Source: Candidatus Babelota bacterium (GTDB taxonomy: Bacteria > Babelota > Babeliae > Babelales > Vermiphilaceae). Taken from it: a DNA stretch of 64,000 nt. A program made the position numbers and the translations under genes. The notes under the pieces were generated by a model, which had not been told where the DNA came from, searched no databases, and worked only from the letters and a program-made list of their open reading frames with translations. The stretch's first letter is position 1. Each line of letters begins with the position of its first letter. This document shows positions 3,387 through 49,854 of this stretch, piece by piece. The stretch covers positions 67,145 to 131,144 of the forward strand of contig JBBDMI010000006.1 of assembly GCA_040878395.1 (NCBI GenBank), given 5' to 3'.

Positions 3387-3482
3387 GATTTCATCCTTTT
3401 TATATGTATACATATCTTTATTCGAACATTTTTCGCATTTTTCTAATAGTTTTTTACGTTAATACACCTAGCTTTTTCTTCC

Positions 3483-3551
3483 TTTTGTCATTCCTGCGAA
3501 GGCAGGAATCTATAATTATTATGGATTCCTGTCTTCACAGGAATGACAAAA
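3483..3551. repeat. short palindromic element (two inverted arms) of the TTTGTCAT-hairpin repeat family
   Basis: ttttgtcattcctgcgaaggcaggaatc ... ggattcctgtcttcacaggaatgacaaaa. Each arm is itself an 8-bp hairpin (attcctgc/gcaggaat and attcctgt/acaggaat), and the arms are inverted relative to each other. Confidence 0.8.
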
Positions 3552-3619
3552 TAAAACCTATTTAATAACCTTTTTCACCTTCGAAGGCAACTCAAAAACC
3601 TGATCATACTCGAGCCATA

Positions 3620-6097: not shown

Positions 6098-6202
6098 TTA
6101 ATCACCTTTTTATTCTATAGGAATGCCAGGGCAAACGCATTTAAAATTAAAGTTTAAAGGCATTTTTTAAGTATGATCCATCACTCTTTACAACAAAAAA
6201 TA

Positions 6203-6384
6203 TTTTTCTATTTTGTCATCCCTGAAGGGGATCCAGGCCAATGAAACTCTTAATAATCAAAGGAATATTATCAGAATAAGTCTAAAATAATTCGTAAAAA
6301 ATTATAAAATTATTCTGGCAGAATCTCTCTTAGGATTATACCGGTTACCGCTGGATCCCCTTCAGGGATGACAAAATAGAAAAA
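6203..6384. mobile_element. MITE-like non-autonomous element with perfect 34-bp terminal inverted repeats
   Basis: Left end tttttctattttgtcatccctgaaggggatccag (6203-6236) is the exact reverse complement of 6351-6384. The internal AT-rich core (aataatcaaaggaatattatca...ataccggttaccgctgg) recurs in inverted orientation at 47102..47295. It has no ORF and lies in a divergent intergenic region. Confidence 0.8.
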
Positions 6385-6470
6385 CATTTCATTAATAACG
6401 CCGCACTATTTTACAAATGCGCGATCTCACATTACCATAAATAAAAAGGCTTTTACACAGGAAATTATCG

Positions 6471-38676: not shown

Positions 38677-39798
38677 TTACCAATTCATAACAACTGCAGC
38701 TTGCTTCATCACATAAACTTCATGTTGAATCATTTCTTTGACCAACTGTTCAAAATTAACTTTTGGTTCCCAACCAAGCTTTTCTTTCGCTTTTGTTGCA
38801 TCACCAATGAGCAGATCGACTTCAGCCGGTCTGAAATACTGCGGATCAACAAAAACATACGGCGTACCGGTACGTTTATCAAGGCCACGTTCGTTCAATC
38901 CTTCACCTTCCCATACAATTTCGATACCAACATGTGCAAATGCAATTTCAACAAACTCACGCACTGAATGCATTTGTCCGGTTGCAATCACAAAATCTTC
39001 CGGTTCATCTAACTGCAAAATACGCCACATCGCATCGACATATTCACGTGCATGACCCCAATCACGCTTTGCATCAAGATTTCCTAAATAAAGAGCATCT
39101 TGAAATCCGAATTTAATACGCGCAACAGCACGAGTAATTTTTCGTGTTACAAATGTTTCACCCCGCACCGGTGATTCATGATTAAACAAGATGCCATTAC
39201 ATGCATATAAACCGTATGCTTCGCGATAGTTTTTTGTTATCCAAAAACCGTACAGTTTTGCAACACCATATGGTGAGCGAGGATAAAATGGTGTTAATTC
39301 TGTTTGTGGAATTTCTTGCACTTTCCCATACAGTTCACTGGTTGACGCTTGATAAAAACGAGTTTTATTGGTCAACCCTAAAATGCGAATCGCCTCCAAA
39401 ATACGTAAGGTGCCTAATGCATCAACTTGTGCTGTATATTCCGGAAGTTCAAACGAAACGGCAACATGACTTTGAGCAGCTAAATTATAAATTTCATCCG
39501 GCTCAATCTCTTTTATTAATCGGATAATATTACTTGTATCGGTGATATCGCCATAATGTAATTCAAATCTGTTGTCCGGAGATTGATGTTTATCTCTATA
39601 GATGTGATCTAATCGTGGAGTATTGAATGATGAAGCTCGACGTTTGACCCCATGAACTTTATACCCTTTTTGTAATAACAGTTCAACTAAGTATGAACCA
39701 TCTTGCCCGGTAACTCCGATGATCAATGCAACTTTGGCATGTATGGATATAACACCTAGTAACAACAATAAAACTAATTTAAACATACTTTTTTTCAT
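38677..39798 (-). CDS. gmd: GDP-mannose 4,6-dehydratase carrying an N-terminal signal peptide-like extension
   Basis: [76 protein letters not shown]. Homology to E. coli Gmd ([18 protein letters not shown]) starts right after the leader [26 protein letters not shown] lies 5 nt upstream of ATG 39798. Confidence 0.9.
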
Positions 39799-39817
39799 TC
39801 TCATCCTTTTTTTTACC

Positions 39818-39844
39818 TTTGTCATCCTCGAAGAGGATCCAGGC
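39818..39844. repeat. solo arm of the TTTGTCAT-hairpin repeat family
   Basis: tttgtcatcctcgaagaggatccaggc, with hairpin atcctc-gaa-gaggat. It lies ~20 nt upstream of the gmd copy 1 start. Confidence 0.7.
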
Positions 39845-39891
39845 TAAAATAACTTTCATTCAAAAAACTATTTTAGCTTATTTAAAATAAA

Positions 39892-46996: not shown

Positions 46997-47101
46997 TGTG
47001 CTATCCTTACTTTATTACAAATACAGAGTAAATGCATTTAATTTTGAATCTAAAAACTGTTTTTTAAGTTCATTCATCACTCTTTACAATAAAAATCATT
47101 T

Positions 47102-47295
47102 CCATTTTGTCATTCCTGAAGGGAATCCAGTGGTAACCGGTATGATTTTTAAGAAAACCTTGCCAAAATGATTTATAATTTTTTTACAAATTATTTTTGA
47201 TAATATTCCTTTGATTATTGAACAATCTTCTTTGCCCAGTCTTTGTCCAAACTATGCCGGTTACCGCTGGATCCCCTTCAGGGATGACAAAATGG
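47102..47295. mobile_element. MITE-like element, second full-length copy (inverted relative to 6203..6384)
   Basis: Ends are ccattttgtcattcctgaagggaatccagtggtaaccgg and ccggttaccgctggatccccttcagggatgacaaaatgg. The reverse complement of the core shares aataatcaaaggaatattatca...ataccggttacc with the 6.2-kb copy. A 13-nt terminal fragment gatgacaaaatag recurs at 47353-47365. Confidence 0.8.
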
Positions 47296-47408
47296 GCAAA
47301 TTACTTTGTTTTTTGCACCTGAATTGTCACATTAAATTGTTTAAACATACTTGATGACAAAATAGGAGGTTATTTCATTTTAAGTAAATTTAAAAACATT
47401 TGCCCTAA

Positions 47409-48530
47409 TTACAGATGTTTTTTATAACTACCTTGTTTTAATAATTTTACAATGCCACGCACATTTTCCGCAGCATCACGCTTGGTAATCAACAGTGCAT
47501 CATCAACTTCGACAACACACAAATCATCAACACCAACAAGCGCAACCAATTTACCCGGGACATCAACTAAATTATTACGTGCATCAACACCAATAAAATT
47601 CGCATCCAAAGTGTTATACTGTTGTTTCAATGACAAAAACACCTCAATGTTTCCTACATCACACCAAGAAAAATCAACCGGCATAACCGAAACATGCTTG
47701 CTTCGTTCCATAACGGCATAATCAATTGAATCGGCAACAACTTTTTCATAGCTACCAACATTGTCTAAGTAGTTTTTAACACCTGCGAACATTTCCGATG
47801 CTTCTTGTTGAAACTCACGCATAAACGTTGAAGCCTGTGCACAAAAAATACTTATATTCCAAAGTTTATTGCCTTGTTCGATATATTGTTGTGCAACTTC
47901 GAATGACGGCTTTTCACGGAAACGACTCACTTTATATGGCGCTTGTTGCTCTAATGCATCCTGTGGATCAAATTCAATATATCCATAACCGGTTGCAGGA
48001 TAAGTCGGCTCTACACCAAGTAGTACGATATCATCATGCTTTGTTGCATGATCAACTGCATGATCTAAAAAGTCTCTACACTTTTCCCAATCACGTTTTG
48101 GAATAAACGGATCTGCCGGCAGGAAAACAATAACAGCATTTGGATCAATTGCATGGATTTCCATACAACATAATAAAATTGCAGGTCCGGTGTTGCGCGA
48201 ACCAGGCTCAACTAAAATACGCCCAACACGATGCTCAACAGATAACCGAATGTTTTCTTCATGCTTAGCTGTTGTACTTATCCAAATATGATCTTTTGTT
48301 GTCATCGGCGCAATACGATCAATTGCTTGCTCAAGTAACGTAACATCAGAACCTAATGTTAATAGCTGTTTTGGCTTGCATTGTCGACTCAACGGCCATA
48401 AGCGAGAACCATCACCACCGGCTAAAATAACACAATACAGATTTTTTTTATTCATATTAGTTCCGTGTGCTGTAAATGCTGAACATGCGACCAATAAACA
48501 CGCAAATAGTTTTTTACCATGAAATACCAT
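47409..48530 (-). CDS. manC: mannose-1-phosphate guanylyltransferase with signal peptide-like leader
   Basis: YCVILAGGDGSRLWPLSRQCKPKQLL plus an NTP-transferase fold. The start at Met13 (MVFHGKKLFACLLVACSAFTAHG) has AGGAG 7 nt upstream. An internal Met38 (48455, MNKKNLYCVILAGG) would give a canonical leaderless form but has no clear SD. Confidence 0.8.
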   Translation of the reverse strand: MVFHGKKLFACLLVACSAFTAHGTNMNKKNLYCVILAGGDGSRLWPLSRQCKPKQLLTLGSDVTLLEQAIDRIAPMTTKDHIWISTTAKHEENIRLSVEHRVGRILVEPGSRNTGPAILLCCMEIHAIDPNAVIVFLPADPFIPKRDWEKCRDFLDHAVDHATKHDDIVLLGVEPTYPATGYGYIEFDPQDALEQQAPYKVSRFREKPSFEVAQQYIEQGNKLWNISIFCAQASTFMREFQQEASEMFAGVKNYLDNVGSYEKVVADSIDYAVMERSKHVSVMPVDFSWCDVGNIEVFLSLKQQYNTLDANFIGVDARNNLVDVPGKLVALVGVDDLCVVEVDDALLITKRDAAENVRGIVKLLKQGSYKKHL

Positions 48531-49854
48531 ACCAATGCTCCTTTTTTTTGGTAATATAACAAACAACTATTTTCCATATACCAACCGATGTCAATAACAT
48601 TAAAATCGGTTCAAAAACAATACGATATCGACAGCATCCGTCAATACCTGTTGGAAAGCTCAAACTGATCATCATTACTACAAAAAACCAGCCAATTAAA
48701 CTATTCATTTTAAAAACAACATATAATCCAACAATTGTCAGCAATAAACGAATGATTGACCATATCAATTCAAACCATGTAATATTCTCAACCCATTTGT
48801 GTGAAGTGCCGCCCATAATATAGTGATGTATACGTTGAGTCAAAGAACCTGATTGCACAAAAAAAGAATGCGCCATTTTATGTCGCTCCGGCTCAAGTAA
48901 TCTTTTGAGTTGCGTACTATACAAACCAAGCCATGTTTTGCACACATTAACAAACCAAATGCGCACAAATGTAAAAGGATGTTTTTTTAGGTAGGTATAA
49001 AAAATTTTTTTTGCCGGTTGCCACCCCTGATCATCCAAACTATGTTTTCCCGCAAAACGCAACTCTGTTTCTATAATCTCTTGTGGATCTTTTTGTTCAA
49101 CAGAGCCGATTACTTTTGCTAACAAAACTTGATACAGATTCACTTGGGCTGTAGGCGCAAAAGCAAAACAACCGTACTGCACATAATTACGCGTCATATA
49201 CATGGTTAATGGCAAAAAAAATGAAAACAACAATAATAATATATTTTTTATTTTAGAATGATGCATTGCAAAAAAGGTAATAATAGAAAGGCAAACAACA
49301 AACAACATTGCAACTGGTTTTATCAACATTGAAATACCTAAAAATAATCCCGAAAAACACAATGCACTGCTATCATGCGTTTTTAAAAAAGTAAGATAAC
49401 GCTCAACAAACAATAATAAAACAACCAATAAAAGCGTTTCGGCTAAAATCAATTGTGGATACACATAAAATCCAATAGTACCTAAAAAACAAAAAGCAGT
49501 AATGGCAGCTATCATTTTATTAAAAAAAGTAGATGCAATATGCATTAACAATAAAAGTGCACAACTCATAAGTAATATTTGCACGATAATAATTGGTGTA
49601 ATAGTATGCCCAAATAGTGTAAATAGTACCCCCATCACAAATGGGTATCCCACCGGCTGAATAGGAGCACTATTTACACTATTTGGGTCAGTCAAGGTTC
49701 CTGTTTGCGCAAAATGCCAAGCGATTGGATCATAGCCATAGGAATCAACATCATAATGACCCTGCGGTTTTGGCACAAAAAAATATAACGTAGTTGCAAA
49801 AAAAAGATACACTAGAATAAAAACAAATGATTCTTTTTGCACGTTAAGCAACAT
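48514..49854 (-). CDS. polytopic GT-C-fold membrane glycosyltransferase (ArnT/PMT-like)
   Basis: About 10 or more hydrophobic helices. An N-terminal loop with YGYDPIAWHF and PIQPVGYPFVMGVLFTLFG is typical of the GT39/GT83-type. It is the only polytopic protein in the island. Confidence 0.45.
   Translation of the reverse strand: MLLNVQKESFVFILVYLFFATTLYFFVPKPQGHYDVDSYGYDPIAWHFAQTGTLTDPNSVNSAPIQPVGYPFVMGVLFTLFGHTITPIIIVQILLMSCALLLLMHIASTFFNKMIAAITAFCFLGTIGFYVYPQLILAETLLLVVLLLFVERYLTFLKTHDSSALCFSGLFLGISMLIKPVAMLFVVCLSIITFFAMHHSKIKNILLLLFSFFLPLTMYMTRNYVQYGCFAFAPTAQVNLYQVLLAKVIGSVEQKDPQEIIETELRFAGKHSLDDQGWQPAKKIFYTYLKKHPFTFVRIWFVNVCKTWLGLYSTQLKRLLEPERHKMAHSFFVQSGSLTQRIHHYIMGGTSHKWVENITWFELIWSIIRLLLTIVGLYVVFKMNSLIGWFFVVMMISLSFPTGIDGCCRYRIVFEPILMLLTSVGIWKIVVCYITKKKEHWYGISW

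Follow-up and report, generated by a model that had tools for sequence, protein, structure and literature searches.

Palindromic repeats in a 64,000-nucleotide stretch of a Dependentiae genome (Candidatus Babelota bacterium, assembly GCA_040878395.1) are very probably Ssn-type hairpin repeats, the group that includes NTS and SRM, the CGTC/TGTC-tagged repetitive extragenic palindromes (REPs) and Neisseria dRS3, and the same genome carries a cognate nuclease gene; we put the probability of this reading at about 0.85. The stretch, hereafter the window, is C6:67145-131144 of a 16-contig, 1.34-Mb genome with 35% G+C (C labels are contigs of this genome, G000; G001 and G002 are two congeners). The repeats add an example to a system described in 2025 and are no new kind of element; in that system NTS and 'Ssn-related motifs' (SRM) accompany, across bacteria, SsnA, a GIY-YIG protein of 94 aa (Chenal et al. 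2025, Nat Commun 16:2388; PMC11893778). The window copies are gene-less head-to-head pairs of arms, one minimal pair and one truncated solo arm. Each arm consists of TTTGTCAT, a short stem-loop and a final CCAG or CCAT; between copies, stems vary by paired changes.

A nuclease gene bracketed by repeat arms

The arm type of the two full-length window copies, 6203-6384 and 47102-47295 (family A below), also brackets a gene. A 498-nt unit at C16:21104-21603 consists of inverted family-A arms, TTTTGTCATCCCTGAAGGGGATCCAGG... and ...CCTGGATCCCCTTCAGGGATGACAAAA, on either side of a small gene for a GIY-YIG protein, ssn (Table 1). The encoded protein is 55–62% identical to Wolbachia, Rickettsia, Ignavibacteria and Patescibacteria homologs, and Y7, Y18, R28, H32, E65 and N84 are invariant in their alignment; as judged from its sequence, it is an intact Ssn homolog. 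Homologs at 55–73% identity are numerous, both in metagenomes and in Wolbachia, Rickettsia, Ignavibacteria, Patescibacteria and Hyphomicrobium, and the contigs that carry them are often very short.

The genome has two ssn copies. The second lies with four family-B arms in a ~990-nt cassette at C3:54580-55602 (locus L158, 1181-2203), whose edges are a 30-nt direct repeat, GTCGATTCTGTAATGATGAAAGAATCATAA, identical to the 3' end of the upstream gene, presumably an oligoribonuclease gene. This repeat in turn is made up of GTC and, after it, a GATTCT...AGAATC hairpin. In G001 the corresponding gap has an ORF (open reading frame) that, from its translation, we take to be ankyrin-repeat-like, and in G002 it has what appears to be other non-coding DNA. 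The site thus behaves as a variable, exchangeable cassette slot rather than a clean empty site.

The pairing of gene and arms recurs in other genomes. At the loci whose DNA was retrieved, ssn has similarly built hairpin arms beside it; these loci come from Ignavibacteria, Wolbachia, a Rickettsia endosymbiont, Pirellulales (L076) and another Dependentiae genome (L128). An inverted hairpin-gene-hairpin arrangement occurs at 10/11 Ssn loci of other Dependentiae genomes. Among 61 Dependentiae genomes, a strong Ssn match was found in 5/7 with the strict arm motif versus 6/54 without it, and in several of the strict-motif-negative genomes ssn is flanked by variant hairpins, e.g., CGTCATCCTCGCGAATGCGGGGATCCAG or GTCGTTGCGAGC...GCAATCCAG. 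Ssn genes of other Dependentiae genera (L169, L170, L172-L174) have quite different flanking hairpins (e.g., GTCGTCCTCGCGAAGGCGAGGATCCAG, CGTCATTGCGAGGAACGAAGCAATCGAG, AGTCTTTGCGAGCGAAGCGTGGCAATCCAG), which suggests that nuclease and hairpin have co-diversified within one phylum.

Similarity between gene-less and gene-bearing units is not limited to the arms. Over 83 nt, positions 6210-6292 match the sequence just 3' of ssn in the C16 unit at 81% identity, a similarity that reaches ~50 nt past the arm, and a copy at C5:134716 shows the same kind of similarity to the ssn 3' flank over 111 nt. Because sequence beyond the arm is held in common with the ssn element, the gene-less units, 6203-6384 among them, look like internal-deletion derivatives, related to the gene-bearing unit as a MITE (miniature inverted-repeat transposable element) is to its parent. 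The first-pass annotation of this DNA had described a structured, non-autonomous, REP- or MITE-like repeat family, and this description is supported.

That annotation had also named a REP-associated tyrosine transposase (RAYT) as a possible partner. None was found in the genome with PF01797, a search to which control genomes respond; the partner gene encodes a GIY-YIG nuclease. Enzymes of the IS110/Piv type, for which Neisseria dRS3 serves as a recombinase target, likewise gave no match in the genome (PF01548), and rve and DDE_3 transposases were rejected as partners after they had no match there.

Genome-wide census and arm design

A hairpin-aware census found 76 oriented arms at 38 intergenic loci genome-wide, so the family extends well past the window, and the refuting condition set at first, a lack of further copies in the genome, does not hold. 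Arms occur on every contig but C4 and C14 (14 of 16), and 0/76 lie inside ORFs of ≥90 aa. The pattern TTGTCATYCC-N(3-12)-GGRATC had 46 matches in the genome versus 0 for a reversed control, and TTGTCATYCC-N(3-12)-GGRATCCAG occurs at at least 120 loci in other genomes, from many phyla. These numbers refute the idea that the copies reflect chance similarity or local duplication within the gene island of the window, whose probability we consider negligible. A scan of public genomes for the exact family-A arm gave no match, whereas a looser pattern did. In a set of 61 relatives, copy numbers ranged from 0 to 46.

The tag is TGTC in 72/76 arms, TATC in three and TTTC in one; GTC directly precedes the palindrome in 72/76 and C directly follows it in 68/76. 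A CCA tail is present in 63/76 arms (CCAG 43, CCAC 9, CCAT 8, CCAA 3). Each of the 28 distinct arm types has A-T and then T-A as its first stem pairs, and loops are 3–7 nt long. There are four main stem families: family A, ATCCC/ATTCC-TGAAG, has 29 arms with stems of 5–6 pairs; family B, ATTCCTGC-GAAG, has ~20 arms with 4-nt loops; family C is ATTCCCGG-CTTGA and family D is ATCCTC-GAA. Families B and C have 8-bp stems. Some single hairpins carry the tag on both strands, e.g., TTTGTCATCCTCGAAGAGGATGACAAA. Neighbouring arms are paired head-to-head in 30 cases, tail-to-tail in six and head-to-tail in two, and the head-to-head units are 23–498 nt long with modes near 157 and 200 nt.

Eight arms lie <400 nt from contig ends (C9:131/330, C10:55, C10:100089, C12:28, C12:88868/89024, C15:66788), so that true copy number may exceed the count. 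The repeats are probably a main cause of breaks in this assembly.

Covariation, folding and position relative to genes

Stem pair 3 is C-G or T-A in 28/28 distinct arm types of the genome, a census that required a hairpin; a fair test of covariation therefore uses arms of other genomes. The test set was 76 distinct arms from other phyla, in which pairs 6–8 had been left free by the search pattern. These pairs were matched in 95%, 89% and 92% of arms, respectively, with up to four Watson-Crick types, and pairs 3–8 together were 96% paired versus 74% (maximum 78%) with shuffled partners. The argument, made first from the window alone, that covariation shows the structure to be selected is therefore sound. 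In the window, the two arms of the minimal pair 3483-3551 differ by a compensatory change of C-G to T-A; folded as single-stranded DNA (ssDNA), they are stable, reaching -7.7 and -6.4 kcal/mol (z -4.7 and -3.3). The selected structure is most likely an ssDNA hairpin, not RNA.

The elements had been described as lying always just 5' of genes. All four window sites are indeed tandem or divergent, but 12 of the 32 classifiable loci genome-wide are convergent (16 tandem, 4 divergent; 6 more at contig edges), and the upstream-of-gene pattern is a small-sample effect of the window. Convergent loci are modestly enriched relative to the 21% of intergenic bases that are convergent (p = 0.03, with crude ORF calls). 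This enrichment is what would be expected if the hairpins were host-selected RNA or DNA signals, i.e., 3'-end stabilisers, terminators or outward promoters, and the covariation came from RNA structure. REPs in other bacteria can stabilise mRNA (PMC3733652), ATGACA, the reverse complement of the tag, resembles an outward -35 box, and one weak promoter-like match, 47113-47086, faces gmd. On the other hand, no T-tract follows the stems, terminator scans made no call at the elements, promoter-like sites at the elements were no commoner than in shuffled sequence, and Rfam at gathering thresholds had no match in the whole window. Moreover, SsnA does not bind the RNA form of its hairpin (PMC11893778), so the terminator or attenuator role among those first offered is unsupported. 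The spread of copy numbers among relatives also speaks against a host signal, and the congeners, without elements at the same gene junctions, indicate that the elements are not needed for those genes. We regard a host-signal origin of the hairpins as quite improbable. Among the roles offered, that of protein-binding site is the best supported, since, by analogy with NTS, the family hairpin would be the ssDNA recognition site of Ssn (PMC11893778).

Recent gain in comparison with congeners

Comparison with the two congeners points to recent gain of the window copies. The genes that flank 46997-47407 are 411 nt apart here versus 13–17 nt apart in G001 and G002, and those that flank 3414-3619 are 206 nt apart here versus ~27–30 nt. 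Neither congener has the solo arm of 39818 in its orthologous intergenic region upstream of gmd. Gene order is kept at these three sites, which are thus simple insertions, and the proposal that the elements mark rearrangement junctions fails wherever it can be tested. The GT6 and sulfotransferase genes flanking 6203-6384 are not adjacent in either congener.

The 3414-3619 insert sets a methyltransferase gene apart from an upstream methyltransferase-GT2 gene, and the 46997-47407 insert sets gmd copy 2 apart from its upstream gene. Both of the split gene pairs are probably co-transcribed in the congeners, and the inserts may have changed expression of the flanking genes. CATATC was considered as a 6-nt repeat around the 3414-3619 insert and rejected: the DNA between CATATC and the arms is unique and the orthologous intergenic DNA is too diverged.

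Target-site duplications, which the first-pass annotation had proposed looking for, were found in part. A 9-bp duplication surrounds the outer shell 47023-47407, for which G002 retains an empty site with a single TTACAAATG, but directly outside the arms the flanks are themselves palindromic (...ATTTTGTCAT / ATGACAAAAT...) or part of larger repeat modules and would mask a duplication.

MITE shells and palindrome frameworks

The duplication bears on an explanation by which a DDE (IS4/IS5-type) insertion sequence gave rise to the copies as ordinary MITEs, with the arms as passive passengers spread without Ssn. The second full copy, 47102-47295, lies inside a composite MITE, 47023-47407, whose insertion point is the upstream gene's stop codon and which has imperfect terminal repeats between the duplicated ATTACAAAT and ATTACAGAT. 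Its ends, CAGAGTAAATG and TAGGGCAAATG, resemble the repeat CAGGGCAATCG of a resident DDE_Tnp_1 element with ends CAGGGCAATCGCG..., and both make 9-bp duplications. The ends and the duplication together show that 47102-47295 travelled at least once inside a conventional MITE, and the composite unit 6126-6397, which encloses 6203-6384, has a similar left end. A comparison of element ends found no clear right terminal repeat or target duplication for 6126-6397, so that a DDE-MITE shell is shown for 47023-47407 and not for 6126-6397. It is inapplicable to 3483-3551 and 39818, where the repeat is the arms plus a few adjacent bases only.

The resident insertion sequence, C10:70409-71752, is 1344 bp long. 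It has a DDE_Tnp_1 ORF with an open frame of 398 aa, its terminal repeats, CAGGGCAATCGCGTGAATAA, are perfect over 20 nt, and the target duplication beside it, GGTCGCCTT, measures 9 bp. Another DDE_Tnp_1 ORF is present at C5:99262-99759. The C10 element is the likely transposase source for MITE shells ending (C)AGGGCAAA.

Several features of family A are at odds with passive carriage alone. The pair occurs in two unrelated frameworks, with ends CAGGGCAAA and CTCACCTTACGCA, respectively, and it also brackets the ssn gene. The CTCACCTTACGCA framework occurs at C8:21619, C9:3034 and C12:81533 with a plain palindrome, TTTGTCATCAAGT-loop-ACTTGATGACAAA, and elsewhere, with identical flanks, has a family-A arm pair or an ssn unit in the palindrome's place; the outer TTTTGTCAT and ATGACAAAA are constant and the segment between them varies. 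The arm motif is, furthermore, common to phyla without this insertion sequence. Like IS4/IS5-type DDE MITEs, and like C10:70409-71752, 47023-47407 has terminal inverted repeats and a 9-bp duplication; unlike in such MITEs, these features belong to the outer shell of one copy, perhaps two, and the arms are internal and also occur shell-free. DDE transposition is therefore unlikely to account for the family as a whole.

A separate mosaic repeat of ~280–330 nt, with ends CTCACCTTACGCA/TGCGTAAGGTGAG and a central TGTCAT...ATGACA palindrome, is present at C8:21505-21790, C12:81338-81700, C3:4619-4758 and ~25 other sites (29 matches to the end motif with ≤2 mismatches). No cognate transposase for it was identified in the genome.

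Relation to known repeat systems

The likeness to dRS3 and NIMEs, put forward at first as a resemblance only, is more than that, because, the short family-A stems apart, the arms have the defining anatomy of CGTC/TGTC-tagged REPs, of which dRS3 is a member. This superfamily, as defined by Di Nocera, De Gregorio and Rocco (2013, BMC Genomics 14:522; PMC3733652), has the tag CGTC, often TGTC, a stem of 8–9 bp whose first pairs are A-T and T-A, a loop of 4–5 nt and a CCA tail; its members are intergenic, with head-to-head dimers predominating, and include Neisseria dRS3 and Rickettsia RPE-4 and RPE-6. The arms described here share the TGTC tag variant, the first two pairs, the CCA tail, head-to-head dimers and a mosaic organisation of modules like that of the Neisseria NIMEs, and the loops of family B fall within the 4–5 nt range. 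They differ in that family-A stems are 5–6 bp long versus 8–9 bp in the four CGTC families, and in that they flank a GIY-YIG gene, whereas CGTC REPs were reported in 2013 to 'apparently lack a dedicated transposase' and no dedicated enzyme was found (PMC3733652). The literal dRS3 string ATTCCC-N8-GGGAAT is absent from the window, whose arms belong to the ATCCC/ATTCC types and are spaced differently.

The Neisseria NTS, CGTCATTCCCGCGMAVGCGGGAATCYRG, contains dRS3, and SsnA binds the hairpin as ssDNA only, with no binding of its double-stranded DNA or RNA forms, and cleaves a few nucleotides upstream; binding depends most on the C after the palindrome and cutting on the three bases before it (PMC11893778). 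Ssn of the characterised members (Neisseria, Wolbachia) has this ssDNA-only binding and makes its nick a few nucleotides 5' of the tag. Y6, Y17 and E64 are the published catalytic mutants, and NTS-ssnA-NTS was noted to be insertion-sequence-like, with mobility not assayed there (PMC11893778). In NTS and in the arms of the present genome alike, the hairpin is oriented and tagged (C/T)GTC, its stem opens with AT, and C comes next after the palindrome. The associated proteins are in both cases single-domain GIY-YIG proteins of ~95 aa with matching catalytic residues. Also common to both are the hairpin-gene-hairpin arrangement, the many gene-less copies in intergenic mosaics and the enrichment in host-associated bacteria. 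Differences are that the stems here are AT-rich (CCTGC, CCCTG, CCTC) and, in family A, limited to 5–6 pairs, for which reasons the published SRM string finds few of the arms, and that some copies are nested in DDE-type MITEs. Dependentiae are not mentioned by Chenal et al., and the activity of the present protein is predicted from sequence.

REPINs, built from GTAG-tagged REPs, and their RAYTs, which are IS200/IS605-like tyrosine transposases, offer a further parallel: tagged hairpins form inverted pairs dispersed between genes, the cognate gene is present at low copy with hairpins on its flanks, and recognition is of ssDNA. The tag is nevertheless TGTC here versus GTAG, the genome has no Y1 transposase, and a GIY-YIG nuclease, which acts by hydrolysis and is not known to carry out strand transfer, takes the partner's place.

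How the repeats might act and spread

If these are Ssn-type repeats, Ssn would recognise the arms in DNA that becomes single-stranded while it is replicated, repaired or taken up. This interaction would maintain the tag, stem and tail, which would account for the stem covariation, and might drive or permit the spread of arms. Some copies also move passively, as with 47102-47295 inside its 385-nt MITE. Ssn itself may spread the repeats, at somewhat less than even odds.

Less likely still is a stronger version, in which arm-ssn-arm is an autonomous mobile element of a mechanistic class outside current transposon classifications, with ends set by a lone ssDNA-directed GIY-YIG nuclease, and was recently active in this Dependentiae lineage. 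Gene-less derivatives of such an element would insert into the middle of TGTCAT...ATGACA palindromes or take its place. Comparison of the 'empty' palindromes (C8:21619, C9:3034 and C12:81533) with filled copies in identical flanks indicates segment exchange between the constant outer sequences, and an autonomous element would explain how arms came to lie inside two unrelated MITE shells.

Alternatively, Ssn and its hairpins might be a domesticated host system that restricts or modulates incoming ssDNA or recombination, the repeats being no longer mobile. The only biological role shown for any member is in transformation of Neisseria meningitidis (PMC11893778), ssn is present at two copies only, and arms cluster in a variable glycan island. 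The site-level presence and absence, near-identical arms, deletion derivatives and truncated solo arms all point instead to recent gain, which makes full domestication improbable. A domesticated ssDNA-handling role is compatible with the assignment to Ssn-type repeats.

Several observations weigh against that assignment or against parts of it. The published SRM string, HGTCWYN(0-2)YYVSBRHN(0-5)WNVSBRGN(0-2)RNCYNB, matches 3/76 arms, none of them in the window, and its three matches in the genome compare with 0–2 in each of ten first-order Markov random genomes, so that it is not enriched. The string fails because AT-rich stems have T where V or S is demanded (CCTGC and CCCTG versus CCCGC). The G001 assembly, 95% complete, contains related arms, yet a search at E ≤ 1e-8 found no Ssn homolog in it. 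The C16 protein is a putative member of CDD cd10448, the Ssn clade. Family-A hairpins are weak as DNA (-3.4 kcal/mol, z -0.2 to -0.9); the 182-nt unit 6203-6384 folds whole as one long hairpin (-45.4 kcal/mol, z -10), and where an element has two arms, the small hairpins would have a competitor in the long stem formed between those arms. Finally, Ssn is a hydrolytic nuclease for which, to our knowledge, no strand-transfer activity has been shown, so a role in spreading repeats is hypothetical in any organism.

Orphan arm pairs of G001 are found at other loci, e.g., C11:24945-25113, C2:12174-12246 and C23:57587-57628.

Since the hairpin-nuclease pairing (2025) and the repeat superfamily (2013) are already published, little here is new in kind. 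The Ssn system is extended to the Dependentiae, a group of reduced parasites that live inside protist cells. The published SRM string misses ~96% of arms in this AT-rich genome, so string-based surveys undercount low-GC lineages. The recent gain, in which tight gene pairs of congeners are split by 180–400 nt, bears on whether Ssn propagates repeats, as does the gene-less copy that matches the ssn element beyond the arm. There are also consequences for annotation, namely false start codons (gmd copy 1), spurious small ORFs and assembly breaks.

Repeat copies in the window

All five repeat pieces reported at first are present in the sequence at the coordinates given for them, including the second two-armed copy, 47102-47295, the 69-nt minimal two-arm copy, 3483-3551, and the solo arm at 39818-39844. 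The stems attcc/ggaat, atccc/gggat, attcctgc/gcaggaat, attcctgt/acaggaat and atcctc/gaggat likewise hold as described. The inverted ends of 6203-6384 are perfect over 34 nt, as claimed, and extend to 39 nt at 97% complementarity (6198-6236 versus 6351-6389). The two full copies have a common internal core in opposite orientation, 6281-6393 being 75% complementary to 47088-47200 over 113 nt. The fifth piece, a 13-nt sequence (GATGACAAAATAG, 47353-47365) described as an end fragment of the family, exists but is half of a different palindrome module, TTTGTCATCAAGT...ACTTGATGACAAA.

Per-base BLAST repeat coverage over the whole genome shows that repeated DNA reaches past the ends first given for the full copies, to ~6126-6397 and ~47023-47407. 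Around 3483-3551 genome repeats cover ~3474-3556 only, and the repeated stretch at the solo arm is ~39786-39860.

Table 1. Coordinates of repeat features in the window (plain numbers) and of the ssn genes on other contigs
Feature	Coordinates	Strand	Details
Family-A head-to-head arm pair	6203-6384		Arms 6214-6232 (+) and 6355-6373 (-), TGTC-ATCCC-TGAAG-GGGAT; tails CCAG at 6233-6236 and 6351-6354
Composite repeat unit enclosing 6203-6384	6126-6397		Left end AGGGCAAACGCATTTAAAAT, resembles ends of MITE 47023-47407
Family-A head-to-head arm pair	47102-47295		Arms 47108-47126 (+), ATTCC/GGAAT, and 47271-47289 (-), ATCCC/GGGAT; internal core inverted relative to 6203-6384
Composite MITE carrying 47102-47295	47023-47407		385 nt; ends ACAGAGTAAATG... 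and ...CATTTGCCCTA
Left target-site duplication	47014-47022		9 bp, ATTACAAAT
Right target-site duplication	47408-47416		ATTACAGAT, 8/9 identical; holds stop codon of gene 47409..48566 (-)
'B' mosaic module and right palindrome half	47296-47365		gggcaaattactttgttttttgcacc..., then ...AACATACTTGATGACAAAAT; holds 13-nt fragment 47353-47365
Minimal head-to-head pair, family-B arms	3483-3551		Arms 3486-3509 and 3525-3548
Arm 1 of 3483-3551	3486-3509	+	TGTC-ATTCCTGC-GAAG-GCAGGAAT
Arm 2 of 3483-3551	3525-3548	-	TGTC-ATTCCTGT-GAAG-ACAGGAAT
Solo family-D arm, truncated element	39818-39844	+	TTTGTCATCCTCGAAGAGGATCCAGG, then ~20 nt of internal sequence, GGCTAAAATAA...
ssn gene	C16:21175-21459		95-aa ORF, MHTYFVYILCSERNGTLYIGVTNN...; Pfam GIY-YIG, E 7.7e-18
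ssn paralog	C3:54624-54905		62% identical to C16 protein; adjoins four family-B arms

The longest ORF for gmd copy 1, 38677..39825 (-), begins at an ATG inside the ATGACAAA of the solo arm; a better start lies ~20–30 nt downstream, with a Shine-Dalgarno-like AAGGA. Automated annotation may thus add a false N-terminal extension to this gene. Arms also translate as spurious peptides, e.g., LSSLKGIQ.

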